DNA of 64,000 nt from a virus (taxonomy: Duplodnaviria; Caudoviricetes), in IMG/VR virus record IMGVR_UViG_3300032257_000006, positions 1-64,000 of that record; one strand, given 5' to 3'. How positions within the stretch are numbered: position 1 is the stretch's first letter; every line of letters starts with the position of its first letter. Positions 1 to 30,187 of this stretch are shown piece after piece. The position numbers were made by a program, and so were the translations under genes. The notes beneath the pieces were generated by a model. The model was not told the origin of the DNA, searched no databases, and saw only the letters and a list, made by a program, of their open reading frames with translations.

Positions 1-2574
1 AGGGTGCTTCCATAATGGGTACTTCGTGTGATACATACTGCAGCGAGTCATCGACTCTTTACATTCCTTGATCGCTAGTAAGGTCTCGTAACGCCAATCT
101 GTTTTAGGTACGTCATTAGCGAGGGCTGTATCGACAGCTAAACCATCAGTGCCTGGCGAACCTTCTAAGTTATACTTTTGACGGCCACTACCAAAGGTTA
201 CCTTAGAACGTAAGCGAGTCGGTAGCCCCATCATTGCGTACATAACCAACTGCATTTGCGATGCGCTGCCCATGTTCAGTTCAGTGCCGGTAGAAGTTAT
301 TGTACCTTCGCCCATGAACTGGCCGCAGAACTCGGACAACTTTTCATATTCCTCGCCTTCTCTGGCTTTCAGTTCAGGTAGAGCACCCATAAGTAACTCG
401 ATGAATTCTTTCTGTTGTGCAGTGAGTACTACTGGCTCAGCATCTATATCATCGAAGTCGTACGCATTGACTTCAGCTGCCCAACCAGAGATACGAGATT
501 TTGCGACTGACTCGATCGGCGTTGTAATCCCAATCGCTTCAACAACCACATTGAAGTTTTTAACAGTGGGAATAAACTTAGGCATCACAACGGTTTCTTT
601 ATACGGTATGTACTGAGATCCGGCACGCGCCTTTTCTCTGAACTTATTCATATCAGAAATAACTCTGTCTTCTACCCATTTTTCTTCGTCTGCAGCTACC
701 TGATCACCTTTCTCTACCAGCTTACCGAATGCCTTGGTAGCTTTTCGTCTAGCAAGTACGTGAGTATTCTGACCATCCGCAGCAATGTAACCCAGTGCGC
801 CGGCCTCGTTTCGTTCAGCGCAATTCTCTTCAAGTTGGCGTCTAACAAATGCCGTCTTTTCAATTATGATTTTCTTGTCGCGCTCATAGATCTCAGCCAA
901 CCTATCCCAGTCCATGTTGGTGCCGTTGATAAATGCATCCGTTAATGGATTCTGTACATAAGGCTCGTTCTCTTCGTAGAAATCCCATGTACCTTCCAGC
1001 ATCATGCGTAGTTTAAAGAACGAGTAAAGGTGAGCAGTGACGATACTGTCATCACAACCGTAGCTCACTACTTCATCAGCAGTACATTCGAACATTCCTA
1101 GGCGGTCCCCGACTACTTCAGCATACGTTTCCTGCGTGTAATTGAAGTTTTCTTTAGACAAAGACTTAAGACCAGATGATTCATTCTCGTCTACATAAGA
1201 AGACATGATAGCGGTATCATAAACAGGGTAATCGAGTACCGTGTTGAGTTGCAGTTTAGTCACAGCACCTTCGAATGCATTGTTATGTACTACGAATTTA
1301 GTATGTTCATGAGGCATATCGTCAAGTAGGTCTTGGATAACCGTCTTAGACAAGTTGTTGCTGTCTTTATGATTCACGGGAATATAGAAACAGTACTGAT
1401 TGTTTTCACCAAAGCAGAACGAAGCTCCTGCGATCTGCGAGGTCATGATGTCTACGTAGTTACCTTTTGCCGCCGCCTTATTTAACGTCTCGTAGTGAGC
1501 ATCCTGTGTCTCGTAGTCAAATCCTACGCACGGACTTTTAGCAAATGCTGCCAGTGCTTCATCTATGTCTCCGTCCTCTATGTTCTCAGAGTCGAGTAAC
1601 CAAACCTGAACACACAGCTCTTCATAGGCGCCAATTTTTTCTAAGGCGTTCATGCCAGTAAGAACTTTGGTAAGACGTTTTACGTCTGGGATACGGCGGA
1701 ACCAATCGATAGTCACCAGCTTCTTATCTTTCGTACCGGTACACAATTTAGGTTGAAGCTTTGCCAGTTCGTACTGTAGTGCCCAGTTATCTAGGTCGTT
1801 GATAATTATTTTAAGAGGCTGATTATCTGGGCAACATTCAAGTGCTTCATGAAGTGCGCTGAAGTCTCTAGTCTTGATACAGTTTTCAATCTCATCCATA
1901 CCATCGTAGCCAAATGCTTCAACCAGTTCAGTCCACTTCTTAGGGCCGAATCCTTTGATGCCGCCGTACTGGTCAGACGTGTCTCCGAGGAGTGACTTGC
2001 ATAAGGTTAGTTTGTTTGGTGGAACACCTTCAGCAGGGCCGCCAGAGAATTTGAACATGTCACCCATAAAAGCTTCAAGCTTCAACTGTACGATCACGTC
2101 TTCACTGCTAAGTGCAACTAAGTCACCGTCAGTTGTGTATACCATTTTCTTGCCAGGCAAGTTGTCACACCAGTAAGCGATCAGGTCATCAGCTTCGACG
2201 CCTTTAACACGACCCACTGTACAACCAATCGCTGCCCAGAAACCTTGCATCGCATTGTAAAATTTTGCTGACTGTTCTACCTTTACAGGGTCCGTGGTGC
2301 CTTTAGCAATCTCACGTTTCTTTTTGTAATCAGGATGAAGGGAACGTCTATACTCAATACCGCCGTCCATCGCTATTAATAAATTTGTAGGAGAGACTAT
2401 CTCTAGTGCTGCGTCCATATATCTTGTTAAGAAATTTCTAAATGCAAATTCTGCGGTGTTATATAACTCGCCGTCTTCGCCAATAATTCGTTCGGGATCT
2501 TTTCCCATGTTGAAGCAGTGATGCATAACTGCTCGTGCATCAAATATTACCCAAGGGCCTTCAGTGTTTGACAT
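1..2574 (-). CDS. PolA-like DNA polymerase, N-terminal part (5'-3' exonuclease + 3'-5' exonuclease); runs off the left edge
   Basis: Not in the ORF track; translated by hand from ATG 2574: MSNTEGPWVIFDARA...MDGGIEYRRSLHPDYK...GVEADDLIA...DGDL...LLGDTSDQYGGIKGFGPK (flap/5' exonuclease motifs), then GFDYET, VVHNNAFE, YGCDD (DnaQ-like exo I-III). Open to position 1. Confidence 0.9.
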   Translation of the reverse strand, partial: MSNTEGPWVIFDARAVMHHCFNMGKDPERIIGEDGELYNTAEFAFRNFLTRYMDAALEIVSPTNLLIAMDGGIEYRRSLHPDYKKKREIAKGTTDPVKVEQSAKFYNAMQGFWAAIGCTVGRVKGVEADDLIAYWCDNLPGKKMVYTTDGDLVALSSEDVIVQLKLEAFMGDMFKFSGGPAEGVPPNKLTLCKSLLGDTSDQYGGIKGFGPKKWTELVEAFGYDGMDEIENCIKTRDFSALHEALECCPDNQPLKIIINDLDNWALQYELAKLQPKLCTGTKDKKLVTIDWFRRIPDVKRLTKVLTGMNALEKIGAYEELCVQVWLLDSENIEDGDIDEALAAFAKSPCVGFDYETQDAHYETLNKAAAKGNYVDIMTSQIAGASFCFGENNQYCFYIPVNHKDSNNLSKTVIQDLLDDMPHEHTKFVVHNNAFEGAVTKLQLNTVLDYPVYDTAIMSSYVDENESSGLKSLSKENFNYTQETYAEVVGDRLGMFECTADEVVSYGCDDSIVTAHLYSFFKLRMMLEGTWDFYEENEPYVQNPLTDAFINGTNMDWDRLAEIYERDKKIIIEKTAFVRRQLEENCAERNEAGALGYIAADGQNTHVLARRKATKAFGKLVEKGDQVAADEEKWVEDRVISDMNKFREKARAGSQYIPYKETVVMPKFIPTVKNFNVVVEAIGITTPIESVAKSRISGWAAEVNAYDFDDIDAEPVVLTAQQKEFIELLMGALPELKAREGEEYEKLSEFCGQFMGEGTITSTGTELNMGSASQMQLVMYAMMGLPTRLRSKVTFGSGRQKYNLEGSPGTDGLAVDTALANDVPKTDWRYETLLAIKECKESMTRCSMYHTKYPLWKHP

Positions 2575-2603
2575 AACTAACTCCAGACTGTCATTAAATA
2601 CTT

Positions 2604-2636
2604 AAAAATAACAAAGGGGCTGCATTGCCCCTTTGT
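2604..2636 (-). terminator. Intrinsic terminator-like hairpin
   Basis: ACAAAGGGGC/GCCCCTTTGT 10-bp stem, 6-nt loop, followed on the minus strand by TATTTTT. Confidence 0.75.
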
Positions 2637-2653
2637 CAATTACTTACTCAGTG

Positions 2654-3466
2654 CTACGCAGGGCCACCGTACTTGAAGATCCAAGGATAGAAGTCACCAG
2701 AATCGTTAGTAATCTTAGCGCCAACCTGACACTTAGTAATTACTTCAGATGGTTTACCTTTGCCTGTGAACTTAAGCATCGCTAAGTGACCACTGAAACG
2801 CTGTACACCTGAAGGCGGAATTGACAACATAACCATCTCACCATCAAGTTCTTCAGAACCTTCTGCATCTACAAGCATTGCAGGTACTTCAAGGTACTTC
2901 TTGATTTCAAGTGAATCAACACCCCATTCAGCTTTAAGCATTGGGACTGTGTTGCCTTCCAATGTTGTACCAGAGTCAGCCTTCATTACATCGTAACTAA
3001 AGTTAACGCGCTTATCTTTAGACGTAGCGCCTGCTGGCTTAATTAAGTACTTAGCCTTACTCTGGGTAACTACTACATTAACTTCTTTACCCAGCGATAC
3101 ACCGCCGTTAGTTTCAAAGATACCTTCACTAGGTAACTTGATAGAAGGGAATGAGAAGAAGCCTAGCTCAACACCTTCAAAGCCGTCTTCAGCAGATTGT
3201 TCTGCAAAGTTACCGCCGCCTGGATGTGACGCTGCTACTTCAGTTGTTTTAGCTTCAGCTATTTCAGTAGAAGTAGTAGGTGCGGGTTGTTCGATAGTTT
3301 CTGCTGGTGCAGATGCTTCGATTGGGGCCGCTACTTCTGATACAACTTCAGCTTCGATTGCTTCGCTTTCTGCGGTTGGTGCAGGTTCGTTAGCAGGTTG
3401 TGTTTCTACAACTGATTCGTCGTCTGTTTTAACGTCAACAGGTTTTGATTTCTTTTGTAATGCCAT
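2654..3466 (-). CDS. Replication-module protein with an acidic Ala/Glu/Pro-rich N-terminus (possible ssDNA-binding protein)
   Basis: Start moved to ATG 3466 (MALQKK) behind a GGAGA RBS; lies between helicase and polymerase; function inferred from position only. Confidence 0.55.
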   Translation of the reverse strand: MALQKKSKPVDVKTDDESVVETQPANEPAPTAESEAIEAEVVSEVAAPIEASAPAETIEQPAPTTSTEIAEAKTTEVAASHPGGGNFAEQSAEDGFEGVELGFFSFPSIKLPSEGIFETNGGVSLGKEVNVVVTQSKAKYLIKPAGATSKDKRVNFSYDVMKADSGTTLEGNTVPMLKAEWGVDSLEIKKYLEVPAMLVDAEGSEELDGEMVMLSIPPSGVQRFSGHLAMLKFTGKGKPSEVITKCQVGAKITNDSGDFYPWIFKYGGPA

Positions 3467-3783: not shown

Positions 3784-4120
3784 CGCTTTTCTCCAAGCTG
3801 TTTACGTGATCCTCTAGTACCATACCTAAGTGATGCACAATACTGTTGGCTTCGCGGCCCGAACCATCTGGGATTATGTACTTTCCATTAGGGTCAAAAG
3901 TTTCGGACATGTCCGAAACAATATCTCTAATGTCGGCACCTAAACTAACCTGTCGTGAATAAGAAGTCATCAACGATGTCACCCACTGAAACGAGTTCAT
4001 TTCCTTACTGTTTACAAAGAAGGCTGTAGGGACAGCAGCGCCCAGTATTGTAAAGTAGATAGTCTGCTCGTCTTCTCCAGGTATTTTTATTTTGTACGTT
4101 CTACTTGGTAGTACTTCCAT
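3776..4120 (-). CDS. Stand-alone TSCPD/NrdJb-like domain protein
   Basis: Pattern LPSRTYKIK..E.TIYFTI...FFVNSK...SLMTSYSRQ...SIVHHLG resembles the C-terminal domain of class II ribonucleotide reductases. Confidence 0.6.
   Translation of the reverse strand: MEVLPSRTYKIKIPGEDEQTIYFTILGAAVPTAFFVNSKEMNSFQWVTSLMTSYSRQVSLGADIRDIVSDMSETFDPNGKYIIPDGSGREANSIVHHLGMVLEDHVNSLEKSDA
3901..3918. repeat. Palindrome copy 1 (inside a CDS)
   Basis: TTTCGGACATGTCCGAAA, perfect 18-bp palindrome. Confidence 0.85.
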
Positions 4121-19748: not shown

Positions 19749-19766
19749 CTAAGTTCTCCTGAAATG

Positions 19767-19782
19767 TTCGGACATGTCCGAA
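19767..19782. repeat. Palindrome copy 4
   Basis: TTCGGACATGTCCGAA. Confidence 0.9.
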
Positions 19783-19792
19783 AGTTAATTAG

Positions 19793-19910
19793 AGCTGAGA
19801 GCTGGACTCGAACCAACGACCTCCACCTTAATAGGGTGGCGCTCTTCCCGTAGTGAGATACAGTCTTAGCAACAGTCTCACCTATTACCTCGCCTCTGAG
19901 CTATCCCAGC
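19793..19910 (-). tRNA. Atypical tRNA-like RNA: anticodon ATT, ~45-nt insertion in the D-loop, no encoded CCA
   Basis: Acceptor GCTGGGA/TCTCAGC; TA; D-stem GCTC/GAGC with a 53-nt loop; anticodon arm CCACC-CTATTAA-GGTGG; variable AGGTC; T-arm GTTGG-TTCGAGT-CCAGC. Confidence 0.75.
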
Positions 19911-19927
19911 TCTAATTAACCTTATAT

Positions 19928-20035
19928 TACTACTCTTATACAAGAACACTCTTTGAGATTATACCCCTCCCAAGGGGAACCTGCCTCGTTTTACAGAGTG
20001 GGAATACAGGTGAGTGCTCTTATATAAAAATAGTA
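19928..20035 (-). ncRNA. Structured RNA closed by a 24-bp stem
   Basis: 20035-20012 pairs with 19951-19928 without gaps, including 4 G-U pairs valid only on the minus strand; inner stems ACCTG/CAGGT and CCCCT/AGGGG. Confidence 0.6.
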
Positions 20036-20038
20036 GAA

Positions 20039-20073
20039 GTGGGAAGGATCATCACCACAATAGATCCTCCCAC
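20039..20073. other. 11-bp hairpin
   Basis: GTGGGA(A)GGATC / GATCCTCCCAC. Confidence 0.55.
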
Positions 20074-20157
20074 CAAGCTATGACTGGTGTGATTTGGGCA
20101 CCGCCCATTACGTAACTACATTGTCCTATCCTCCAGTTAAGGTTTAGTATTTAAAAA

Positions 20158-20481
20158 TTACAGTGCTTGATTAGTTAGTCTAGCATACTCAATTGCGTTT
20201 TCGGTTTCACCTGTATCCACAAACTCTTTGAGAGCAAGTTTAGGCATGTTACGCGGGCCACGAGGCCGGCCCCTGTTGTGTGCAGAAAATATTCTTTCCT
20301 TCTTACATTGGTCTATAAGATTATGCAGCCGCTCAACAGATGGTATCAGTTTATAAGTAATTTTTAAGGCTCCAGGAAGTTTTATATATACCCAGTCACC
20401 TTCATGATTTCCACTTTCAATAGCATCGATGGCGAGCAGTACTCGTAGCTCGAACTCTTGAAATAATTGTTTAGCTGACAC
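20158..20481 (-). CDS. Hypothetical protein
   Basis: GTG start behind TAAGGAGG, which overlaps palindrome copy 5. Confidence 0.7.
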   Translation of the reverse strand: MSAKQLFQEFELRVLLAIDAIESGNHEGDWVYIKLPGALKITYKLIPSVERLHNLIDQCKKERIFSAHNRGRPRGPRNMPKLALKEFVDTGETENAIEYARLTNQAL

Positions 20482-20490
20482 AATTCCTCC

Positions 20491-20506
20491 TTAGGACTTG
20501 TCCGAA
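20491..20506. repeat. Palindrome copy 5
   Basis: TTAGGACTTGTCCGAA. Confidence 0.9.
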
Positions 20507-20509
20507 AGT

Positions 20510-21082
20510 TTAAATGTTACAGGTTTGTACTGCTGACTTAGCCTTAATATATGCTGAATATTTTTCATCATACGCATACTTCGCTTTTACATGGTCAGTC
20601 AGTTCTTTAATTCGTTTCTTGTCCTTAAGGATAGTACCCATAGAACTTAGTGGCCCCTTTATTCCTTTTTGGTATTCGAACAAGTTACTGGGGTAGGTGT
20701 AGGTAAGCGTATCTTTAGTACTCGCACTTTCTTTTGCGAGTGTAAGTACACCCCATTTATTTTCACCATTATTACCTGTAGTTACACCTTCAGGCGGTAC
20801 TGGTACAGGGTTTTTACTGTAGATGGCTTTTGCTTCGAAGAACTTCTCAATTTTAGTCTTGTGCTCTAGTAGAAACTCTTCCAGCAACTCTACAGCGTAG
20901 CTAATCTCGGCGGCTGATGGGTTTGTTTTGCCAAATCGTATACCAGATATTGCAAACAAAGGTTGGCCGCATGGCCCTACTATCTCCATATATTTCTTAT
21001 CTTCCTGAACTCGTACATGGTAATCACCGAGTCGGTTGTTATTCAATAAGGATTGACATGCTTTACGTAACATTAAACTCAT
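20510..21082 (-). CDS. Hypothetical protein
   Basis: 190-aa ORF. Confidence 0.75.
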   Translation of the reverse strand: MSLMLRKACQSLLNNNRLGDYHVRVQEDKKYMEIVGPCGQPLFAISGIRFGKTNPSAAEISYAVELLEEFLLEHKTKIEKFFEAKAIYSKNPVPVPPEGVTTGNNGENKWGVLTLAKESASTKDTLTYTYPSNLFEYQKGIKGPLSSMGTILKDKKRIKELTDHVKAKYAYDEKYSAYIKAKSAVQTCNI

Positions 21083-21113
21083 AATAATTCTCGCTTTTAA
21101 TTTTCAATTTAGT

Positions 21114-21332
21114 TTATAAAATAAGTGCAGGGTAGTTCATGTGATGATCAGGTACATCTATATGTACAATGAACTGTGTACAGCCTTCTACAAGGTCGGG
21201 AAGTTTGCCATTAAATCTCAGCTCCCTTACCTCTTCGAAGATCTCGTAAATTTGCTCCTTTTCTGTTTCGTATGAGCCAGTAGAATAGAACTTACCGGTA
21301 GTTGGTTTGAAATAATTAAGATTTACTTTCAC
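21114..21332 (-). CDS. Hypothetical protein
   Basis: 72 aa, GTG start, AGGAG RBS. Confidence 0.7.
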   Translation of the reverse strand: MKVNLNYFKPTTGKFYSTGSYETEKEQIYEIFEEVRELRFNGKLPDLVEGCTQFIVHIDVPDHHMNYPALIL

Positions 21333-21341
21333 AATTTTCTC

Positions 21342-22136
21342 CTAAAGTAATCCACGTTCGGCAAAAGATACGACTTCATCTCCTACTATAAAATGATCTA
21401 ACACCCGCATATCTAAGAAGCTAAGTGCCTCCTTAAGTCGTTCAGTGATGCGTTGATCTGCGCTACTTGGCTCAGTATTGCCTGAGGGGTGATTGTGTAC
21501 AAAAATCACTGCCGCTGCATTGACCTTCAATGCAGACTTAACTACTTCACGAGGGTATACACTAGCACCGTCTATAGTGCCTCTGAACATGTCCTCTACC
21601 TCAAGTACACGGTGACGTTGGTCGAGCCATATGCATGAGAACACTTCGTGCTCAAGCTTTCTGTATTTTACCTTTAGGAATTGGCGCATAGCTTCTGGAG
21701 AGTCCATAACCTCTCCGTTTCTAACTTTAGTTTCCAGTATCCGAGCTGCCGCATCTAGGATGTCTTCTTCCAGCCAGTGTTCTATGATAGGTGTCTCTAC
21801 AGGAAACGCTTCACTGAAGCCTGCAATTTTAGCTGGGTTCTTCTTATAACTATCACTTACTACGGTGTTCCACAAGTAAACCTCGGCGTCATCCAACTTA
21901 GCAAATGCCTCTTCAGTGTTTTCAAATATTACATTGAATGTCCCACCGTTTACGTCAATGTAAATAAAATACTCCTTCTGGTTTCCGTAAGTGTAGCCAC
22001 AGATACTGGCAAAGTAGTCAGCTAAATCTACGTCTATACTGTCTTCCCACTTTCGTTCACCTATAAATTCCAAGTAGGTCATTTTACTTGGCACTTTGTA
22101 CTCAACTTCTTCTTCTGAATTTACTTTGTTAGTCAT
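21342..22136 (-). CDS. radC: RadC-like JAB domain protein with an extra ~115-aa N-terminal domain
   Basis: EHEVF, GTIDGASVYPREVVK, HNHPSGNTEPSSAD, LDHFIVG. Confidence 0.9.
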   Translation of the reverse strand: MTNKVNSEEEVEYKVPSKMTYLEFIGERKWEDSIDVDLADYFASICGYTYGNQKEYFIYIDVNGGTFNVIFENTEEAFAKLDDAEVYLWNTVVSDSYKKNPAKIAGFSEAFPVETPIIEHWLEEDILDAAARILETKVRNGEVMDSPEAMRQFLKVKYRKLEHEVFSCIWLDQRHRVLEVEDMFRGTIDGASVYPREVVKSALKVNAAAVIFVHNHPSGNTEPSSADQRITERLKEALSFLDMRVLDHFIVGDEVVSFAERGLL

Positions 22137-22140
22137 AATC

Positions 22141-22515
22141 TTATCGTCCTGAGTTACCTACGTTAGTTACTGCCTCTGCAAAATTTTCTAAACTCTCCAA
22201 AGCCTCTACTGGTGCGAATCTATTCTGTCCACCAGAGTAATCCTTACGGCCGTTACACGATCTGAACAATATCTCGCTGCCACTTCCTGCCAGTGGTTCG
22301 GATACTTGCACATACACCTTTTCAGTGTGTAACGTGACCTCACCAGATACGGCAATGCCGCCCTTATTAACGCTCAGGTCATACTGCCACTTGTCCAACC
22401 CCATCGCCTTAGCTAGGTTACGTAACGCCTTTTTACATTCAACATGAAACGTAGCTTTGTTCCTTTCGTTGTAGCAAATTTGCGACTTCATTATTAACGA
22501 TAATTTTTTACTCAT
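22141..22515 (-). CDS. Hypothetical protein (NKGGIAVSGEVTLH pattern)
   Basis: Start moved to ATG 22515 after the AGGAG RBS and palindrome copy 6. Confidence 0.7.
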   Translation of the reverse strand: MSKKLSLIMKSQICYNERNKATFHVECKKALRNLAKAMGLDKWQYDLSVNKGGIAVSGEVTLHTEKVYVQVSEPLAGSGSEILFRSCNGRKDYSGGQNRFAPVEALESLENFAEAVTNVGNSGR

Positions 22516-22535
22516 TTTAAAATTCTCCTGAAATA

Positions 22536-22551
22536 TTCGGACATGTCCGAG
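22536..22551. repeat. Palindrome copy 6
   Basis: TTCGGACATGTCCGAG. Confidence 0.9.
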
Positions 22552-22552
22552 A

Positions 22553-22585
22553 ATAAAAGGGCAGTACCTCAAGGGCTAGGTACTA
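22553..22585 (-). terminator. Terminator-like hairpin downstream of the ACCA-ended RNA
   Basis: TAGTACCT/AGGTACTG stem, 8-nt loop, then CCCTTTTATT. Confidence 0.55.
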
Positions 22586-22592
22586 CCAAACA

Positions 22593-22741
22593 TGGTGGCG
22601 GTTGCTGGGCTCGGCCTTTGTTATCCAGCGTTAGGTTGCTTGAGCGTTTTCGATTGGTTGTACATAAGACTCTGTAAAGTCTCATACACATAATCTACTT
22701 GCTCGTTGCACCATCAAGAGCAGCTTACAGGCTGCACCACC
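22593..22741 (-). ncRNA. ~149-nt tRNA/tmRNA-like RNA with kissing loops and a 3' ACCA
   Basis: 5' GGTGGT pairs with ACCGCC followed by ACCA; hairpin loops CTGTAA (22730-22725) and TTACAG (22677-22672) are exact complements; no coding ORF with its own start. Confidence 0.65.
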
Positions 22742-22747
22742 ATAAAC

Positions 22748-23338
22748 TTAACTTTTGTAAAGGAAGTGAGTTCCGCCGTCATAGGCTTCCCAATAGTATC
22801 CACGCTCTTCTACAAATTTATTTAATTGGTTGTGTACCATCATGGTATACATAGTTTCGTCTGGGTCTGTCTCCCACGCATCATTACTAAATGCTTGCAT
22901 ACCCTCGATGTAGCTACCTTCGCCAGACCACACAAGTCTCCTTTGGCTATTATCAAACTCACCGCCGTCCTTAAACCAACAGCCTGGAAACGCTAATTTT
23001 AGTTCGCCCAAGATTTTCTTCTTCTCTTCCATAAAGTCTTGTTCAATAAGTCCGTCAGCTTCTACCATTTGCTCAGAGCTAACAGCTGGAACTATAAAAT
23101 CAACTGGCGTCATTCTTAATGTCATTGTGTTACTAACTTGTGTACTTTCGCACAGTTCAATAATTTCCTTAAGCGTTTCTATGTAGGTAGAAGCGTCTTC
23201 AAAATTATCTCTATACTCAGGGTCGTTAGTTAGCATAAATTCTACTGCCGTAATTTTACGGCTTTCAATTTTCTTATCTAGTCTAAGTTTAATCGTTGTC
23301 AGTAACTTAGTCTTGTAAGCTGTCTCTTGGCTACTCAT
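22748..23338 (-). CDS. Hypothetical protein
   Basis: 196 aa; RBS overlaps palindrome copy 7. Confidence 0.75.
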   Translation of the reverse strand: MSSQETAYKTKLLTTIKLRLDKKIESRKITAVEFMLTNDPEYRDNFEDASTYIETLKEIIELCESTQVSNTMTLRMTPVDFIVPAVSSEQMVEADGLIEQDFMEEKKKILGELKLAFPGCWFKDGGEFDNSQRRLVWSGEGSYIEGMQAFSNDAWETDPDETMYTMMVHNQLNKFVEERGYYWEAYDGGTHFLYKS

Positions 23339-23349
23339 GATATTTTCCT

Positions 23350-23365
23350 TTCGGACATGTCCGAA
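23350..23365. repeat. Palindrome copy 7
   Basis: TTCGGACATGTCCGAA. Confidence 0.9.
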
Positions 23366-23367
23366 TG

Positions 23368-23571
23368 TTATTGGCCGATAATATCGAAACTAGTACTGGC
23401 CATTTTAATTTGCACATCAAATCCCAGATCTTTAATTTTACGCAGCTGGTCACGACTTAATGTTTTTGTTCCTGCTAACTGACAAAAACTTTTAGCATTG
23501 TCATCTACAGGGTAGGCAAGTTCTTTGCCGTATTGTTGCTTTACTTCAATTGTAACAGTTGGTTTAATCAT
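23368..23571 (-). CDS. Hypothetical protein
   Basis: 67-aa ORF. Confidence 0.7.
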   Translation of the reverse strand: MIKPTVTIEVKQQYGKELAYPVDDNAKSFCQLAGTKTLSRDQLRKIKDLGFDVQIKMASTSFDIIGQ

Positions 23572-23774
23572 GTCATTATTCCTAAGTCTCTAGGCGTTGC
23601 CAGTCTAGCTGACGCCATCTTATATTTTTTACCATACTGATTTTCTAGTGCACCTTTCTCTGCACCTTCTTTAGTTTTGGATGCGACAATTTTAGTGCCG
23701 CCTCCGATACGTACCACCCACTTTTTAACTTTGCGAGTGCTCCAATATTCTTCTGCATTAAATTCTTCACTCAT
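23568..23774 (-). CDS. Hypothetical protein
   Basis: Start moved to ATG 23774 (MSEEF) behind GAGG. Confidence 0.6.
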   Translation of the reverse strand: MSEEFNAEEYWSTRKVKKWVVRIGGGTKIVASKTKEGAEKGALENQYGKKYKMASARLATPRDLGIMT

Positions 23775-23829
23775 CAGGTTTTTCCACCTCTGTGATACAG
23801 GTCTACAGAGTACTATACATAGCTGCACC

Positions 23830-24162
23830 TTAGACCATTTTATTAAACGCAACACCGTGATAGTACCTTTGCTTTTTCTGCTTCTTACTACGTGAATAAC
23901 AATCAGCAACCATCTCCCAGTACTTGTCTTCTTTCCACTGGTGAACAGAGTAATAACCTTTATCAGCTAGTGTATAACCTAGGCTGCACAGGTCATTTAA
24001 TCTGTCTTCTTGCATCGATGCTCTATGCCTGGCTAATTGGTAGTGATACCCTGCATCATGTTCAAACGCTGCATCTTCTCCAGCCGTTTCTGTGTCTGTA
24101 AAATTACAGATACGTTCAGCTCTTGTGCCGTCTTCCTGTTCATAAATAATTTTAAATTTCAC
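23830..24162 (-). CDS. Hypothetical protein
   Basis: 110 aa, GTG start, AGGAGG RBS. Confidence 0.65.
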   Translation of the reverse strand: MKFKIIYEQEDGTRAERICNFTDTETAGEDAAFEHDAGYHYQLARHRASMQEDRLNDLCSLGYTLADKGYYSVHQWKEDKYWEMVADCYSRSKKQKKQRYYHGVAFNKMV

Positions 24163-24322
24163 GCCGCCTCCTAATAGCTTCTTGCGCAGATTCTCTACGC
24201 TCTCTAGTCATTACTTTATGTTCGAGACTAACAACATACATAATGTGAGTATTACATTTATGTTTGCTGTCTTCCAACATGAACATAGCATGAAGTATAG
24301 TCATTACTCTTTCAGGGTTCAC
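24152..24322 (-). CDS. Hypothetical protein (56 aa)
   Basis: Start moved to GTG 24322 behind AAAGGAG, after palindrome copy 8. Confidence 0.55.
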   Translation of the reverse strand: MNPERVMTILHAMFMLEDSKHKCNTHIMYVVSLEHKVMTRERRESAQEAIRRRREI

Positions 24323-24338
24323 GTCGTCTCCTTTAGCT

Positions 24339-24354
24339 TTCGGACATGTCCTAA
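24339..24354. repeat. Palindrome copy 8
   Basis: TTCGGACATGTCCTAA. Confidence 0.9.
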
Positions 24355-24575
24355 AGTCCCAAAACCTTTCTAGCTTTCTCATCCGACATTATATGGTCGT
24401 ACATACTGTTACACATACGTTGTCTCAAGTTGCCGCACTTAGGCTCGCTATCAACATCATAGCCATTCATTAATAAATAAAACTCAGCCAACGCGGCCTC
24501 AGTCTTAAGCGTAATAGTGACAGGTTGAAACTCTTTAGCCTGTTCTACTCTAAAATCTAAATATGTGTCAGCCAT
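24351..24575 (-). CDS. Hypothetical protein
   Basis: 74 aa; its TAG stop lies inside palindrome copy 8. Confidence 0.7.
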   Translation of the reverse strand: MADTYLDFRVEQAKEFQPVTITLKTEAALAEFYLLMNGYDVDSEPKCGNLRQRMCNSMYDHIMSDEKARKVLGL

Positions 24576-25194
24576 CTTTTCTTACTCCAGTTAGTGTATA
24601 AAGATCTGTGAACGTTTCTTCACAGTTGTTACAAAATACTTCTTGTGTGCCGATGCCAGTATCGCCGTTAAAACTACCAGCAATATCTAGCGCATTACTT
24701 TTGCAGAATGGGCAGCGGTTGCCGCCGTTGGTTACGTACTCATCCTTCATACTTTTAGTAAATACATGCTTAGCCGGTTCAATAATTTCATCCGGCTTAT
24801 ATACTTTAAGCAGTACACTAAAAATAACCTCACCATAAGGTTCAGCCATTCTCAACGCGGCTCTGTTCTTGGCCGCCATACCTTTAAGTAAATTCCTGGC
24901 CAGCTCTATATCTTTAGTAACTGAAATGCCTTGCGCTAACTCTTTCATCGCAGCTGTATCACTGTCACGCACTATCTTTTTCATAGCGTCATTTATACCG
25001 TCTCTATGTTCAGCAACACCAGCGCTAATTTTAGCGTCTACTTTATCACTCGCTCTACTCGTACAAGCTTGGCAACGTGTAACTCCGTGCTGTATACACT
25101 TAGCAGGGCCTATCTCGAATAAAAATAGTTTATTTATTTCCTTCTGCATCGGTGTGTCATACAGTTCTGGATCAATATAATTATATTCAGCCAT
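24568..25194 (-). CDS. Hypothetical protein with a C-terminal Zn ribbon
   Basis: CPFC...CNNC; also CIQH..RCQAC. Confidence 0.7.
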   Translation of the reverse strand: MAEYNYIDPELYDTPMQKEINKLFLFEIGPAKCIQHGVTRCQACTSRASDKVDAKISAGVAEHRDGINDAMKKIVRDSDTAAMKELAQGISVTKDIELARNLLKGMAAKNRAALRMAEPYGEVIFSVLLKVYKPDEIIEPAKHVFTKSMKDEYVTNGGNRCPFCKSNALDIAGSFNGDTGIGTQEVFCNNCEETFTDLYTLTGVRKDG

Positions 25195-25213
25195 TTTAAT
25201 TTGCTCCTTAGTT

Positions 25214-25229
25214 TTCGGACTTGTCCGAA
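25214..25229. repeat. Palindrome copy 9
   Basis: TTCGGACTTGTCCGAA. Confidence 0.9.
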
Positions 25230-25232
25230 TAT

Positions 25233-25751
25233 TTAATCAGGCTCACCTACAAAGTTAGCTAGAGCCAGTTCTAATGTTTCATACCTGCATTTTTGTGGTT
25301 GACGATCAAACGAACCACCGTAACTATAAGGCCAAGCGATATGGCCTTCCCAACTTAGCAGAGCCAGTACATTGTTTGGTGAATATGAAATGGTTAAGTT
25401 CTTGTCTTCTGTATTTTTTAAGCAGACGTAATAGTCTTTGTGGTGAGTTACTGTCCATTCACCTGCGGCCCCAGTTAACTTGTCACCTACTTTAAGTGCG
25501 TCTGAGTCTTCAGGTTCCATCGGTTCAATATCTTTCATCCAGCAACAATAAAAGCACGTAGTATCACCAGACCATGTATGACCTTCTTTCAGTCTGAACA
25601 TCTTACGTCCAGATTCGTGCTTTGGTTTTTCTTTCACTACTCTAGAATTCATACCTTTATTAAAAAATTCTTCGTAGCCTACATAAACACCAACACCGTG
25701 CGGTAATTTATAAGGCCGGCCCAGTTCAAGGTCAGTATATTTTATTGTCAT
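25233..25751 (-). CDS. Hypothetical protein
   Basis: Start moved to ATG 25751 after GGAG and palindrome copy 10. Confidence 0.7.
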   Translation of the reverse strand: MTIKYTDLELGRPYKLPHGVGVYVGYEEFFNKGMNSRVVKEKPKHESGRKMFRLKEGHTWSGDTTCFYCCWMKDIEPMEPEDSDALKVGDKLTGAAGEWTVTHHKDYYVCLKNTEDKNLTISYSPNNVLALLSWEGHIAWPYSYGGSFDRQPQKCRYETLELALANFVGEPD

Positions 25752-25766
25752 GATCGCTCCTATACT

Positions 25767-25782
25767 TTCGGACAAGTCCTAA
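25767..25782. repeat. Palindrome copy 10
   Basis: TTCGGACAAGTCCTAA. Confidence 0.9.
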
Positions 25783-26282
25783 AGATTTTCATACCAATCC
25801 ATGTATGTAGACTTAAGCTCCGCATCGTTATGCAAATTTTCAACCATCTCCTCTACATTCTCACAGAGATACATGATACGGATAGCGGCCCCAGTTGGTG
25901 TATTGTCAGTACGCTCCCAATCAACACCAAACAGAAAAGAAAATTGTGCGTCCGTTAAAGCAAATGTATCTTCACAATATTGAAACCAAAAGAACACTGC
26001 CATATCCTTACTCATATGATCTTTAGTAAATTCCAATCCTTTAACAAATGGCGCATGCCCTAAAGCACAACCAATAGTCCCACAATTATCTAATGATCTA
26101 AACGGCACCCCCTCCAACAAACGTCCATCAGGTTTCCTAGTTATCTGACCGTAATCAGTTGCAGCATCAACTTCATGCGCAGCATCAACTTCATGCGCTC
26201 TATATTCACGCATATCAAATTCTTCTTGTGTTACGTTGTGCATTAAATGTTGTGCTAATAATAATAAATTTTCTTTAATCAT
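25779..26282 (-). CDS. Hypothetical protein (CGTIGCALGH pattern)
   Basis: 167 aa; TAG stop inside palindrome copy 10; 18-bp tandem duplication at 26161-26198. Confidence 0.75.
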   Translation of the reverse strand: MIKENLLLLAQHLMHNVTQEEFDMREYRAHEVDAAHEVDAATDYGQITRKPDGRLLEGVPFRSLDNCGTIGCALGHAPFVKGLEFTKDHMSKDMAVFFWFQYCEDTFALTDAQFSFLFGVDWERTDNTPTGAAIRIMYLCENVEEMVENLHNDAELKSTYMDWYENL

Positions 26283-26587
26283 GATGGCTCCTTTATACTT
26301 TCAATCATCTCATTGCACTGCTCACCAATAGACTGGATAAGTTTAGCTTTAAGTAAGTTTATCTTTTCAATATTGGCCAGCTTTACATCATCTTCGTAAT
26401 AAATTTTTGCGTCTAGTTGCAAACTGTCACAGTCAACGCCGCGCATATCTGGTTCAAGTCTGAACTTACAGTCGCCTTCAAACTGAGCTGTCTGAAGACT
26501 AGTAAACTTTACTTTGCCCGTCGGTACAGGTGCGAAGATAGTACATTTGTCATAGTCATCTAAGTGGTTGCATTTTGTTTGGCTCAT
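26279..26587 (-). CDS. Hypothetical protein
   Basis: Start moved to ATG 26587 behind AAAGGA overlapping palindrome copy 11. Confidence 0.65.
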   Translation of the reverse strand: MSQTKCNHLDDYDKCTIFAPVPTGKVKFTSLQTAQFEGDCKFRLEPDMRGVDCDSLQLDAKIYYEDDVKLANIEKINLLKAKLIQSIGEQCNEMIESIKEPS

Positions 26588-26597
26588 AATTTTTCCT

Positions 26598-26613
26598 TTA
26601 GGACTTGTCCGAA
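26598..26613. repeat. Palindrome copy 11
   Basis: TTAGGACTTGTCCGAA. Confidence 0.9.
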
Positions 26614-26625
26614 ACTGTATTCCAG

Positions 26626-26814
26626 TTACATCCACATAACATCTGCATAAGCATTTCTATTAGCCGATACAGCATGTGAAAAGATTCGTTGTTTACAATG
26701 GTTAATAAGTTTAGTTACTTTATCTTGGTCACACTCTGGATAATCAAAAATAGTTGACCGCAACTTGCGCACCAATCGTTCAAGTTCTTTAGTTCTTTCA
26801 GGTGTTAAATTCAT
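26626..26814 (-). CDS. Hypothetical protein
   Basis: 62-aa ORF. Confidence 0.65.
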   Translation of the reverse strand: MNLTPERTKELERLVRKLRSTIFDYPECDQDKVTKLINHCKQRIFSHAVSANRNAYADVMWM

Positions 26815-26822
26815 AAGGTCTC

Positions 26823-27485
26823 CAGTGTAATAAGTGAATCTGTTTTAAATGTAAACAAACAGATTTAGTTATCACACTGAAAGTAAGTACTAGCTGCCAG
26901 TGTACCTAACATCATTTGTAATGCGCTGAGCTTAGCTCCTTTGCGTTGTTACAAGTGTTAGCCAGTGACTGACCCTTACTTTCAATGTAGTCACTCCTCA
27001 GACCTTTTCGGTCTAACCATAAATTACCTGCGTTGCATTATCATGTCTTACGTGCTGCACATTAAGCCAATGGGTTCCAAGTCAGTTAGTTTGCTCAGGT
27101 GTTAGTCCTATCTAGAGCCGTTGTATTATTTGAACAGCTCTCGGACATGTCCGAAAAAACTCTAACCAGTTACCGCTTATATACTCAGGGTCTTACAGTT
27201 GGTTACGAATCGCGGGTAGCAATTCATATATAGTAACCAATCAAGCCAGCACTGCTTGCAACGATCACACTCTGTGATCCGTACAGTTCTCTACAGTAAT
27301 TTGTCGAGTGAGGTCTCGGCTTGTCAGGCCGAGCACCATTTAATCTAGTTGTTAATTAGCACGTCTCTAGGACTTGCACCGGCTTGGGGCCGCTGCCGCG
27401 TTTACTCATCACCTGTACAATCTGTGATGCCTTTAGTAAGGGTCAGTTAACATATACGTTAACAACCTGGCCCTTAGTGAAAGCT
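26823..27485 (-). ncRNA. Large hairpin-dense non-coding region, candidate structured ncRNA(s)
   Basis: No ORF of 60 aa or more; at least 8 hairpins, several with minus-strand G-U pairs; 13-bp perfect long-range complement 26968-26980 / 27435-27447. Confidence 0.5.
27140..27155. repeat. Palindrome copy 12
   Basis: CTCGGACATGTCCGAA. Confidence 0.9.
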
Positions 27486-27545
27486 TCACTCAAATACAAT
27501 GCTGATGACCATCAAGGCCAGTTCAACCCAAATTAGCTCTAACAT
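27486..27545 (-). CDS. 19-aa hydrophobic peptide
   Basis: MLELIWVELALMVISIVFE behind GGAG, after palindrome copy 13. Confidence 0.45.
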   Translation of the reverse strand: MLELIWVELALMVISIVFE

Positions 27546-27576
27546 GTCGTTCTCCATAAATGCTTCTAAAATATCT

Positions 27577-27592
27577 CTCGGACAAGTCCGAA
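27577..27592. repeat. Palindrome copy 13
   Basis: CTCGGACAAGTCCGAA. Confidence 0.9.
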
Positions 27593-27642
27593 AGTTGCGT
27601 TATATCAATTAGCTATTACTAATTGAGGTAGATCAAAAAATA

Positions 27643-27831
27643 TTACAGCCTTATTAGTCCCATCAATAACAGTGTCATAATTACCGCTATGGACAGTACT
27701 AATAATAGTCGCTCTCCTAAGTATCTGAGTGAGCCACCTAAAGTACCATATTTAATACCTTCAACTATCCACTCAACTATTTTATAAATTGCAACAACTG
27801 CCAGTATAAATCCTAGTCCAGTCAAAAACAT
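27643..27831 (-). CDS. Small two-TM membrane protein
   Basis: 62 aa, two hydrophobic helices. Confidence 0.6.
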   Translation of the reverse strand: MFLTGLGFILAVVAIYKIVEWIVEGIKYGTLGGSLRYLGERLLLVLSIAVIMTLLLMGLIRL

Positions 27832-27838
27832 ATAATTC

Positions 27839-27928
27839 CTACCCTATCCACCAAACCACTGCGCTTGATACAACCAGTACTACTGTAAGCGCCACTATCA
27901 GCCTTGCTATTATCTGATCTTTATTCAT
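27839..27928 (-). CDS. 29-aa single-TM peptide
   Basis: MNKDQIIARLIVALTVVLVVSSAVVWWIG behind AAGGAGG. Confidence 0.6.
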   Translation of the reverse strand: MNKDQIIARLIVALTVVLVVSSAVVWWIG

Positions 27929-27940
27929 GACGCGGCCTCC

Positions 27941-28096
27941 TTAAGGTCTAAAGTAAGCCATTACACAAAGTACAGCTACTGCACCTAATATAATGGTCAT
28001 GTCTATTCTAAATGCCCTACGTATGCGCTGATCTTCTAGCTGTGCATCGTAGTAGCGGTAGTCTTTCTTAATCATCTGGCCGTTACGGTTAGTCAT
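27941..28096 (-). CDS. 51-aa C-terminal-TM protein, first gene after promoter P-left1
   Basis: MTNRNGQMIKKDYRYYDAQLEDQRIRRAFRIDMTIILGAVAVLCVMAYFRP behind GAGG. Confidence 0.6.
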   Translation of the reverse strand: MTNRNGQMIKKDYRYYDAQLEDQRIRRAFRIDMTIILGAVAVLCVMAYFRP

Positions 28097-28118
28097 CTCA
28101 TTTACCTCTGTCTTTAGT

Positions 28119-28134
28119 TTAGGACAAGTCCGAA
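28119..28134. repeat. Palindrome copy 14
   Basis: TTAGGACAAGTCCGAA. Confidence 0.9.
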
Positions 28135-28175
28135 AGTTTTACTGCTTCGGACGCTTTCCTCCATTTCTAGGTACC

Positions 28176-28204
28176 ATTATACACCTATTATTAGGATATG
28201 TCAA
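28176..28204 (-). promoter_or_regulatory. Consensus sigma70 promoter (P-left1) driving the early arm
   Basis: TTGACA-N17-TATAAT, a perfect match. Confidence 0.9.
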
Positions 28205-28211
28205 TACCTCA

Positions 28212-28660
28212 GTATTAGAGTATTGGAGTATTAAGGTTTGAATGTGTTTGTACAGTTTTTGTGTTTTTGAGTGGTTTGTATAGTCAGGTCGTCACCTTAA
28301 AATATTAGCGTATTAGAGTATTTAGGCTTATTTTATTTGATATGCATGAGGTGTGCCAGAATTCTGTTTACACGTTTCCGTTCATCTCTTTTATTGATGG
28401 TGATGACTAACGGTAACGTGTCCTCTTTTTGGTTTAATATGTCCGCGATAATATTAGAGTATCTATGTATGCCCTGTTTTTTAGGTGGCGGTGGTATTTT
28501 AGGTTTTGTGTGGCGTCCTTATAGTATCGGTGATTGTGTGAGGTGTACCTGTGTGGCGGTTTCAACGCGGCCCCCGTATTTTTGAGGGTTCGTTTTCCTC
28601 CTTTACATTAAAAAACGTTTTTCAAAAAACACCTAGTCTCAGACAAATAATATTAGAGTA
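28212..28660 (+). repeat. TATTRGMGTA direct repeats (iteron-like)
   Basis: Copies at 28213, 28221, 28303, 28311, 28452, 28651; an inverted copy at 30216-30225. Confidence 0.65.
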
Positions 28661-29219
28661 ACCCTATATTACACAGTAATTTTTTAAAGAAGCCGAAAAA
28701 GAAGACCCTATGTCGCTAAAAAGTTGTTTGTCAGAACGCGGGGGCTTGTTCCGAAATTTAGCTGATTTGGAAGTCTACCCCCCTTCACCTAGGGCGAGCT
28801 AAATGCCCAATGTAGGATACACCCTTACTTATATATAATAATAAAAAAAATAATTTAATATTATATATATAGACATGCTGCGCATGCTGTGAGAACTGTA
28901 GATAGCCCTGAAAGCCCGCCACAGCAGCCTCTCAGCCCTCTGGGGCCGCGTCCTTACTTACAACCCATTGTGCTAACTGTTTGATTTACTTAGATATTTA
29001 AAATGGCGAGATCTGCCAGACTGGGGCCGCGGCCCTAATTTTATTCACGGCCAGGTTTTGCTCAGGGATTTTAATCTTACGGTTACACTGGGGCGGCGAT
29101 GTGGAAGTGAACGCGGCCCTAATAAAAGTTAAAAAGGATTTTTCCTTAGGGGATTTCCAATTAACCATTATTAAAAAATATATATAGGGCGGCGGCGAAA
29201 ATCACAAAATCCAGACGTC

Positions 29220-29496: not shown

Positions 29497-30129
29497 TTAC
29501 GCCGCTTTTGTGCGTTGCTTAGCTACCGCATCAACCGCACTAGCTAAAACCGCTTGTAAGCTCTTAAGCTCAGCCATTGCACCTACTGTTTCAAGGTCTG
29601 CTATTAAGGCACTGATTTTGTCGAATGTTTGAGCCGTATCCATTAGGCCTGATTCAGAAGCCGCCGCCGGTGCCGTTTCATCAGCCGGAGCCGCCGCCGG
29701 TGCCATTGCGCCGAACTCAAGTAAACCGTCTTTTAGGGTCGCTTTGATATCCACAAGAGCATAGGCTCTAACAACGGCTTTGCGTGCCGCGTCCCAGTTT
29801 TTACATTCTGCTTTGCTTTTCTCGCTGTTGTACTGAGTAGAGATAGCCGCTTTTAGTTCTTTGCCTGTAAGCTTGCCCGCTTTTGTTAACGCCGTAGTGA
29901 TTTTATTTTTTAACGCCTTATTCGTTTTGTCATTAGTTACGCGGTGCGCCTCTTTTTCATTATAAAACTCTGTGATTATGCCTTGCACGCTTTGAACGTC
30001 GTCGGCCTGAATAAATGCATTTAGACCAGTCGCTATCTTTACGCCGTTCTTAACACTTGAGCGGATAGCCGTAACGATTGCTTTTTGTTCAGTTGATAGA
30101 GTAGCGATAGTTGTATTTTGAGTAGTCAT
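29497..30129 (-). CDS. Solo Ala/Lys-rich helical protein with its own promoter
   Basis: Start moved to ATG 30129 (MTTQNTT); 210 aa; AT/GCT/AAA codon style differs from the other genes. Confidence 0.75.
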   Translation of the reverse strand: MTTQNTTIATLSTEQKAIVTAIRSSVKNGVKIATGLNAFIQADDVQSVQGIITEFYNEKEAHRVTNDKTNKALKNKITTALTKAGKLTGKELKAAISTQYNSEKSKAECKNWDAARKAVVRAYALVDIKATLKDGLLEFGAMAPAAAPADETAPAAASESGLMDTAQTFDKISALIADLETVGAMAELKSLQAVLASAVDAVAKQRTKAA

Positions 30130-30187
30130 GATATATAAGCCTTTTATAATATGGGGGTAGCAGATTTGCGCCTCTTCCATGTGTCTA

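Follow-up and report, generated by a model that had tools for sequence, protein, structure and literature searches.

Three conserved structured RNAs, one of them tRNA-like, in the early leftward region of a siphophage genome

The early leftward transcription unit of phage G000 (IMG/VR record IMGVR_UViG_3300032257_000006, 78,952 bp) encodes three structured non-coding RNAs that are maintained as RNA by selection. RNA1 is a tRNA-like RNA with a greatly enlarged D loop, RNA2 is a compact RNA of about 150 nt, and RNA3 is a multi-domain RNA of about 670 nt. The window that we analysed comprises bases 1–64,000 of the record, and positions refer to it unless a relative or the whole genome is named (Table 1). 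An original prediction, made from the letters of this stretch, had read the region as a palindrome-delimited early transcript that carries several structured RNAs together with tiny membrane peptides.

Four close relatives were recovered via the large terminase protein (TerL), and three of them are useful here: G001 (IMGVR_UViG_3300032212_000003, 75.6 kb, TerL 81% identical), L026 (a 44-kb ENA scaffold, 80%) and L028 (a 20-kb ENA contig, 79%). Relatives with a TerL identity of about 42–44% have a different layout. In G001, all three non-coding stretches are kept in the same order, with 68–75% DNA identity, which is similar to or above that of the coding DNA (about 70%). RNA3 is kept also in L026, where no RNA2 occurs within the 5.6 kb available downstream. 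Conservation in close relatives thus holds for all three RNAs in G001 and for RNA3 in L026, but not for the RNA3 site of L028, which is occupied by an unrelated 1.1-kb region that is free of open reading frames (ORFs) and has long AT-rich runs (1760–2870, minus strand). This L028 region has repeated GGCCGC-type motifs and its own palindrome variant flanking it, and could be an origin or a different RNA. The comparisons below use two sequences for RNA1 and RNA2 (G000 and G001) and three for RNA3 (these two and L026).

Structure and conservation of the three RNAs

The tRNA-like element that had been noticed among the candidate RNAs proved to be tRNA-derived. Against the Rfam tRNA model (RF00005, gathering score 29), RNA1 scores 27.7 bits over a partial alignment (model positions 8–63), and its G001 homolog scores 31.1 bits. 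ARAGORN does not detect the native G000 sequence, and reports tRNA-Asn(att) in both phages once the D loop (53 nt in G000, at 19897–19845, and 51 nt in G001) is cut to 6–8 nt, in an input to which CCA and A flanks were added artificially. The acceptor stem GCUGGGA/UCUCAGC (19910–19904 with 19800–19794) is followed by U8 and A9, a D stem (GCUC/GAGC), an anticodon arm (CCACC-CUAUUAA-GGUGG, with the anticodon AUU at 19832–19830), the variable loop AGGUC and a T arm (GUUGG-UUCGAGU-CCAGC). The nucleotides of the tertiary core are complete: U8, A14, G18G19 and A21 are present, as are the T loop and, in an anticodon loop of 7 nt, U33 and A37. The D loop starts with A-G-A-G-G (A14, R15, G18, G19) and ends with A21; between them lie about 45 extra nucleotides, and this insert, placed after G19, holds a 6-bp hairpin, GUGAGA/UCUCAC, which has become GUGCAU/AUGCAC in G001 by three double changes. 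At the other end of the molecule CCA is absent, and position 73 is paired with the 5' flank, as are the nine bases that follow it, so that the acceptor helix is lengthened outward by 10 bp into a continuous helix of 17 bp. The discriminator, U in one phage and A in the other, is buried in this helix.

The case for RNA1 rests on how this fold has changed between the two phages. All 29 pairs of the cloverleaf and its extension are standard in both, with six double and two single compensations, whereas controls with slid partners are 33–50% paired and have no compensation at all. Together with the insert hairpin, there are nine compensatory pairs (six in the cloverleaf and extension, three in the insert) and no broken pair. 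The anticodon loop CUAUUAA is identical in the two genomes even though two of the five pairs of its stem have changed. The two-genome consensus reaches −53 kcal/mol, compared with −11 ± 3 for column shuffles, and the minimum free energy fold of 19784–20040 has a z-score of −6.9, a value that applies to the whole region including a long hairpin domain 5' of RNA1. The sequence of that hairpin is not conserved, and G001 has a different 14-bp hairpin in its place. We regard it as very likely that RNA1 is a real, conserved structured RNA.

Both phages form the four arms of a cloverleaf, with a 7-bp acceptor stem and 5-bp anticodon and T stems. What RNA1 does not have is a D loop of about 7–11 nt, nor a free discriminator and single-stranded 3' end with CCA, and for this reason we call it a tRNA-like RNA rather than a tRNA. 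Its 3' half is closest to phage tRNA-Asn(GTT) genes (82–85% identity), and a Myrna suppressor tRNA matches it at 93% over 45 nt. The nearest E. coli gene is tRNA-Val, so that “Asn” describes the anticodon and is not a proven identity. In G001, canonical genes for tRNA-Arg(tct) and tRNA-Met(cat), both with CCA encoded, lie 250–450 nt upstream of the RNA1 homolog (L017 7163–7320, minus strand). By this position RNA1 is part of a tRNA island, but its construction differs from that of its neighbours. G000 itself has no canonical tRNA at all.

RNA3 is the largest of the three, and it too is very likely a real, conserved structured RNA. Its minus strand has no ORF of 30 aa or more, and nhmmer detected homologous segments in L026 (E = 6.5e-23 and 2.2e-16). 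The consensus of the three genomes comprises 140 pairs, of which 43–44 are compensated (18.7 ± 3.7 in column-shuffled alignments); its energy is −88 kcal/mol (−23 ± 4 for shuffles), and 89% of alignment cells are paired (32–40% with slid partners). Compensatory changes preserve helices whose partners are separated by as much as about 300 alignment columns. Pairing is 98% for the 32 pairs with a span of more than 150 columns, and the long-range helices hold 9 compensated pairs. Most of the helices closing the central domain have good support (Table 1). These helices also enclose a copy of the junction palindrome described below, whose place in the alignment is the same in the three homologs. 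Because they span it, the palindrome does not divide RNA3, which is a single RNA or else a pair of pieces held together by pairing. A hairpin resembling an anticodon arm carries the loop CUGACAA, as read from the sequence, and UUUACAC in G001. RNA3 is assigned to the minus strand mainly on the grounds of promoter and gene context.

Searches of RNA3 from G000, G001 and L026 gave no Rfam match, either at the gathering score or with relaxed filters up to E = 10, and there are no iterons or tandem repeats in 26800–27650. Two features of the G000 sequence were considered and set aside. A perfect 13-nt complement (26968–26980 with 27435–27447), which competes with the 5' hairpin, has no counterpart in G001; it was dropped as a structural feature, and may be a G000-specific alternative fold or chance. 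Motifs resembling P4 of RNase P, picked out by eye, were rejected since G001 does not conserve them and Rfam gave no match.

RNA2 begins 7 nt past the stop codon of a gene with a conserved C-terminus, and its identity between the two genomes (82%) exceeds that of the neighbouring genes. The proposed closing stem, GGUGGU(G)/(C)GCCACC, can be drawn in two registers. Further proposed elements are a GCUGG/CCAGC stem, a possible UUGAU/AUCGA pairing and the hairpin GCAGC-CUGUAA-GCUGC, in which G001 has two double changes and one single change. The CUGUAA loop of this hairpin (22730–22725) is the exact complement of a second loop, UUACAG (22677–22672), and both are invariant in the two phages; CUGUAA also agrees with six of the seven bases of a tRNA-Tyr anticodon loop (CUGUAAA, from a phage gene). 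Both genomes keep all 29 proposed pairs, with covariation in one helix only, and the consensus energy is −26.9 kcal/mol against −9.8 ± 3.1 for column shuffles of the two genomes. A 40-aa ORF inside the stretch is broken in G001 by a 2-nt indel. On this evidence, RNA2 is probably a real, conserved structured RNA.

The 3' end of RNA2 had been described as ACCA followed by a terminator. In G000 this is so, in one register of the closing stem, and an intrinsic terminator does lie after it within the early stretch; G001 ends in ACCC and has no terminator. No Rfam match was found for RNA2 from either genome, at the gathering score or at E up to 10, and a T-box or riboswitch leader was rejected because of this and because the terminator of G000 is absent in G001. 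In the gene 5' of RNA2, the last ~17 codons (22748–22800, minus strand) are about 90% identical in DNA to those of G001; the protein has 196 aa in G000 and 93 aa in G001, with the conserved tail ...YYWEAYDGGTHFLYKS.

Table 1. Positions of the RNAs and associated features in the G000 window. Columns are those of the RNA3 alignment.
Feature	Position	Strand	Remarks
RNA1, tRNA-like RNA	19784–19920	−	27.7 bits with Rfam tRNA (gathering score 29); ARAGORN call after D-loop trimming; kept in G001
Long hairpin domain 5' of RNA1	19928–20073	−	About 24-bp helix, branched cap, plus upstream terminator-like hairpin
Junction palindrome copy directly after RNA1	19768–19781	.	
RNA2, ~150-nt RNA	22593–22741	−	82% identical to G001
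Intrinsic terminator after RNA2	22560–22587	−	10-bp stem plus CTTTTATTCT; G000 only, absent in G001
RNA3, ~670-nt multi-domain structured RNA	26820–27490	−	Homologs in G001 and L026
RNA3 helix	columns 309–314 / 641–646		Invariant
RNA3 helix	columns 323–330 / 612–619		Four pairs double-changed
RNA3 helix	columns 362–367 / 598–603		4 of 6 pairs double-changed
RNA3 helix	columns 653–662 / 753–762		7 of 10 pairs double-changed
Palindrome copy, hairpin in RNA3 central junction	27141–27154	.	Columns 477–483 pair with 488–494
Anticodon-arm-like hairpin in RNA3	27315–27333	−	Columns 286–304; stem with compensatory changes
Further palindrome copies flanking the RNAs	22537–22550, 27578–27591, 28120–28133	.	
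Four micro-ORFs with hydrophobic segments	27486–28096	−	Preceded by Shine-Dalgarno (SD) sequences; best 19-residue Kyte-Doolittle means 2.0–2.95
Micro-ORF, 51 aa	28096–27941	−	Hydrophobic
Micro-ORF, 29 aa	27928–27839	−	Hydrophobic
Micro-ORF, 62 aa	27831–27643	−	Two hydrophobic segments
Micro-ORF, 19 aa	27545–27486	−	Hydrophobic
Early promoter	28176–28204	−	TTGACA-17 nt-TATAAT; sigma-70 consensus match 12/12

The early transcription unit and its surroundings

The promoter that heads the unit, the strongest among the early ones of G000, matches the sigma-70 consensus at every position, as does that of G001 at the same place (L017 17350–17322). It is followed by tiny hydrophobic peptides and then by the long early arm. 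The original prediction had paired this promoter with minus-strand structure in the gaps downstream of it, and both the promoter and, through the consensus-fold energies, the structure were confirmed. As for the tiny membrane peptides, all four micro-ORFs that follow the promoter have hydrophobic segments; G001 has hydrophobic ORFs of 69 and 31 aa at the same place. When ORFs were called liberally (38 aa or more), the only gaps of at least 120 nt in the early arm were 19749–20157, 26815–27642 and the control region (28097–28784). The gap at 22516–22747 is covered only by short ORFs without conservation. The small proteins encoded 3' of RNA3 are 10–22% identical between relatives.

A palindrome, TCGGACATGTCCGA, occurs in 16 copies with no more than two mismatches, where 0.07 are expected. 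Genome-wide there are 18 copies in G000 and 14 in G001, and nearly all of them lie 5–25 nt upstream of a ribosome-binding site (RBS). It had been taken to delimit the transcript and to lie beside the RNAs. Copies do stand next to or within the RNA stretches (at 19768, 22537, 27141 and 27578), but most early junctions have one, so that such adjacency is expected and is not specific to the RNAs, except for the copy inside RNA3. Nor does the palindrome delimit a transcript: it is a general motif that marks most junctions between early genes over the range 3.9–30.3 kb, with further copies at 70 and 75 kb of the genome. Two perfect copies, at 3903–3916 of the window and at genome position 70151, are not followed by an RBS and start codon; the first, with its flanks, is conserved in G001.

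The palindrome may act as a DNA operator or as an RNA hairpin, and we lean slightly toward the operator. For a DNA-binding dimer speak the variants in single copies, which are mostly uncompensated, the half-site variant TAGGAC, which occurs on either arm, and the half-sites that distinguish the relatives (TCGGAC in G000 and G001, TTGGRAC in L026, TTGGAC in L028). For an RNA hairpin speak the copy embedded in RNA3, which in L026 still pairs, with one C-G pair turned into G-C and with a G-U pair, and a copy in G001 with a 3-nt centre instead of 2 (L017 8134–8150, TTCGGAC AAT GTCCGAA), a spacing change that an RNA hairpin would accommodate more easily than a dimeric DNA site. A candidate binder is a 227-aa helical protein (29497–30180, minus strand), which adjoins the divergent control region and is the only early-region protein common to all four relatives (identities of 61%, 40% and 34%). 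It has no Pfam or PHROG match, Foldseek found no PDB match for it at E up to 0.001, and its AlphaFold model is mediocre (pLDDT 65). A word-based search returned its homolog in G001 only, and a full HMMER search returned four distant homologs.

G000 is a siphophage of about 79 kb. Its window encodes the large terminase, major head protein, tape measure, primase, helicase and DNA polymerase; thymidylate synthase, an SbcCD-like pair, DNA ligase and a family-A DNA polymerase gene (DNA_pol_A domain) lie outside the window. Minus-strand genes run from about 28.1 kb down to 1 kb, and the rightward late genes start at about 30.5 kb. A polymerase/exonuclease ORF at 1–2574 (minus strand) runs past the window start, and the contig's opposite end holds the family-A polymerase domain (genome 77683–78945; L035 13683–14945). 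From these two observations the contig looks circularly permuted, in which case the minus-strand arm would wrap to about 67 kb.

Within the early arm, a RadC/JAB-domain protein (21342–22136, minus strand) has an extra N-terminal segment of ~120 aa. Its closest homologs, which share 62–65% identity with it across the RadC domain, belong to sulfur-oxidising Gammaproteobacteria (Thiotrichaceae, Thiodiazotropha), which is a weak hint of such a host. As a marker for the locus, RadC gave no relative of the query among viral contigs, and in the protein search it is swamped by bacterial RadC. Other searches for homologs of the locus returned little. Among 50,697 phage records, none was found by megablast of the whole stretch or by blastn of RNA3 and RNA2, and motif scans for the three RNAs in IMG/VR, JGI metagenomes and GTDB genomes returned G001 alone.

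Weighing the possible roles of the RNAs

Our tentative preference, to which we give somewhat less than an even chance as a whole, is that these are trans-acting RNAs, some of them tRNA mimics. They would be transcribed from the consensus promoter in the first minutes of infection, within a polycistronic early RNA, and would be cut out by host RNases; the 17-bp helix of RNA1, with the T stem stacked on it, could be an RNase III-type substrate. Once released, they would work in trans at the RNA level. The most likely role of RNA1, and perhaps of RNA2, would be that of a tRNA mimic that occupies a host protein reading tRNA elbows or anticodon loops, such as an anticodon nuclease or a tRNA-modifying enzyme, and RNA1 would not be an ordinary decoder. 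RNA3 may be a scaffold or sequestering RNA of the kind represented by GOLLD and ROOL. Phage tRNAs are known to neutralise the tRNA-cleaving defences PtuAB, PrrC and PARIS (PMC11555353, PMC11464382, PMC10264068), and a possible anti-defence role, by analogy, would fit these cases as well as the Asn- and Tyr-type loops seen here. A bolder version, which we consider a long shot, would make the early operon an RNA-only counter-defence kit, in which a five-armed tRNA mimic, the tRNA-Tyr-like kissing-loop RNA2 and the ornate RNA3 jointly blind a host nuclease or modifier that reads G/Q34-U35 tRNAs. RNA1 would then present an anticodon loop of the Asn type that has A in place of G34, RNA2 a Tyr-like loop locked in a kissing complex, and RNA3 would become the first case of a large ornate phage RNA to which a role can be assigned.

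Several observations weigh against trans-acting mimics. The proteins neighbouring the RNAs are all orphans, among which no defence system, nuclease or RNA-handling enzyme is identifiable. A single sequencing run is listed as holding the stretch, a microbial-mat metagenome of DNA that is probably its source, and no RNA run. The strand preference of RNA3 is modest (−88 kcal/mol for the minus strand, −80 for the opposite one). Covariation, which had been proposed as a check, supports RNA1 and RNA3 and is not significant for RNA2, where 116 of 500 shuffles reach the observed value; its statistics are thin throughout, with two (RNA1, RNA2) or three (RNA3) sequences in the collections searched. Finally, the idea of a single module is borne out in that the RNAs follow one early promoter, but they are not a fixed, co-inherited set, as L026 and L028 demonstrate.

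The most obvious competitor is that RNA1 is a working decoder, trimmed by RNase III and RNase P, given its CCA, charged, and reading AAU, with its insert hairpin tolerated at the solvent-exposed position 20 or removed. It might replace a host tRNA-Asn as a nuclease-resistant form (A34 for G/Q34), or supply codons. Colicin E5-type nucleases require G/Q34-U35, which suits such a replacement, and the retention of the tertiary-core nucleotides, the canonical 7-nt anticodon loop and the AUU anticodon, the tRNA-island position in G001, the likeness of the 3' half to phage tRNA-Asn(GTT) genes and the existence of phage tRNAs with altered anticodon loops (PMC10264068) all agree with decoding. We nevertheless think it unlikely, and favour mimicry for RNA1, because the same lineage makes normal CCA-ended tRNAs right beside the RNA1 homolog, because the discriminator is variable and base-paired and is not the G73 that AsnRS expects, and because A34, to our knowledge, is essentially unused in bacterial split codon boxes. 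Codon usage points the same way: AAU accounts for merely 52–64% of Asn codons, an unremarkable share, on which ground codon supply was rejected. The Asn identity is itself nominal, given the E. coli tRNA-Val match, and the D loop of 51–53 nt compares with 4–11 nt in a review of non-canonical tRNAs (PMC7609411).

About as unlikely as decoding, and like it a serious competitor, is that the structures are cis-acting parts of the early mRNA, serving as processing punctuation, 5' or 3' stabilisers, or leader or attenuator elements. Organellar polycistronic RNAs do use tRNA-like punctuation, every structure here stops a few nucleotides short of an RBS or of a palindrome with an RBS, the last hairpin of RNA3 abuts the SD of the next gene, and in G000 the succession of RNA2 and terminator has a riboswitch-like layout. 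That terminator is missing from G001, however, the genes downstream differ between relatives (as with the poorly conserved small proteins after RNA3), a 670-nt multi-domain structure with covarying long-range helices far exceeds what processing or stability needs, and conservation of the anticodon loop would be left unexplained. Still less probable is a role at the level of DNA (a replication origin, packaging site or operator clusters) with incidental folds. It could account for a palindrome, and so a possible protein operator, in or beside every stretch, for the small strand asymmetry of RNA3 and for the origin-like look of the AT-rich, repeat-bearing L028 region. It does not account for compensatory changes that preserve distant helices, for G-U pairs in RNA1 that work on the minus strand only, or for an unmistakable tRNA fold, and the RNA3 region has no iterons or tandem repeats. 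The reading to which we give least credence is that RNA1 is a decaying tRNA pseudogene with a small insertion and RNA2 leftover spacer. The failure of ARAGORN and of Rfam at the gathering score to find RNA1 in G000, and the scant covariation of RNA2, would suit it; nine compensatory pairs and none broken, across phages whose coding DNA is about 70% identical, an insert hairpin kept through three double changes, and an RNA2 more conserved than the genes around it would not.

The weakness of the locus is its rarity, with three metagenomic genomes. Its interest is that, behind one early promoter in a small genome, it combines a tRNA fold with an added arm, a loop-loop RNA and a new RNA of ~670 nt, and so offers a compact system for two questions: tRNA mimicry versus decoding, and the role of giant phage RNAs. 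Both are timely, given that phage tRNAs were recently shown to be weapons against tRNA-cleaving immunity and that GOLLD and ROOL have structures but no known function.

Comparison with known systems

Overall, the structures are well supported and their kinds are known, namely phage tRNA islands and large ornate RNAs. The closest parallels for RNA1 are the phage anti-nuclease tRNAs: T5 tRNA-Tyr, which acts against the PtuAB of retron-Eco7, tRNA-Lys against PrrC and PARIS, and the anticodon-loop variants of mycobacteriophages (PMC11555353, PMC11464382, PMC10264068). Like these, RNA1 is phage-borne, strongly promoted and tRNA-shaped, has a changed anticodon loop and, in G001, sits in a tRNA island. 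No cognate defence is identifiable in G000, and the likeness has clear limits, as anti-nuclease tRNAs are canonical, CCA-ended and chargeable, whereas RNA1 has a hairpin in a D loop of 51–53 nt, lacks CCA, carries A34 and has its discriminator paired within an acceptor helix of 17 bp. Extra sequence in the D-loop region is also found in archaeal pre-tRNAs with D-loop introns (PMC3241643). These introns are known from Archaea only, with their own splicing machinery, and need a bulge-helix-bulge motif and the archaeal splicing endonuclease (PMC3241643); nothing of that motif is seen in RNA1, and the signals of G000 are bacterial (sigma-70 promoter, AGGAG ribosome-binding sites). In the literature that we searched, we found no description of a tRNA fold with an added D-loop arm.

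For RNA2, the nearest structural analogy is with phi29 pRNA and similar RNAs, which assemble through complementary loops. RNA2 likewise has two conserved, exactly complementary 6-nt loops, with which it could form a kissing contact within or between molecules. It has no sequence or Rfam relation to pRNA, and a packaging RNA is not expected here, since the terminase of G000 is normal.

The large RNAs GOLLD and ROOL, or a tmRNA, had been suggested as possible identities for the structured regions. None of these was borne out: ARAGORN found no tmRNA, and RNA2 and RNA3 gave no covariance-model match to GOLLD, ROOL, OLE, HEARO, RNase P, tmRNA or group I–II introns in Rfam 15. GOLLD and ROOL are ornate RNAs of phages and prophages that occur near tRNAs (PMC12286853). 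RNA3 resembles them in being phage-encoded, 600–800 nt long, protein-free-looking and multi-domain (PMC12286853, PMC5737381); they are also often found near tRNA genes and have conserved loops that could form kissing contacts. It differs from them in sequence and in its helices, in its occurrence so far in three metagenomic phages and in carrying the junction palindrome as an internal hairpin. RNA3 is therefore placed in the loose class of large ornate phage RNAs, of which it is a member that is neither GOLLD nor ROOL.

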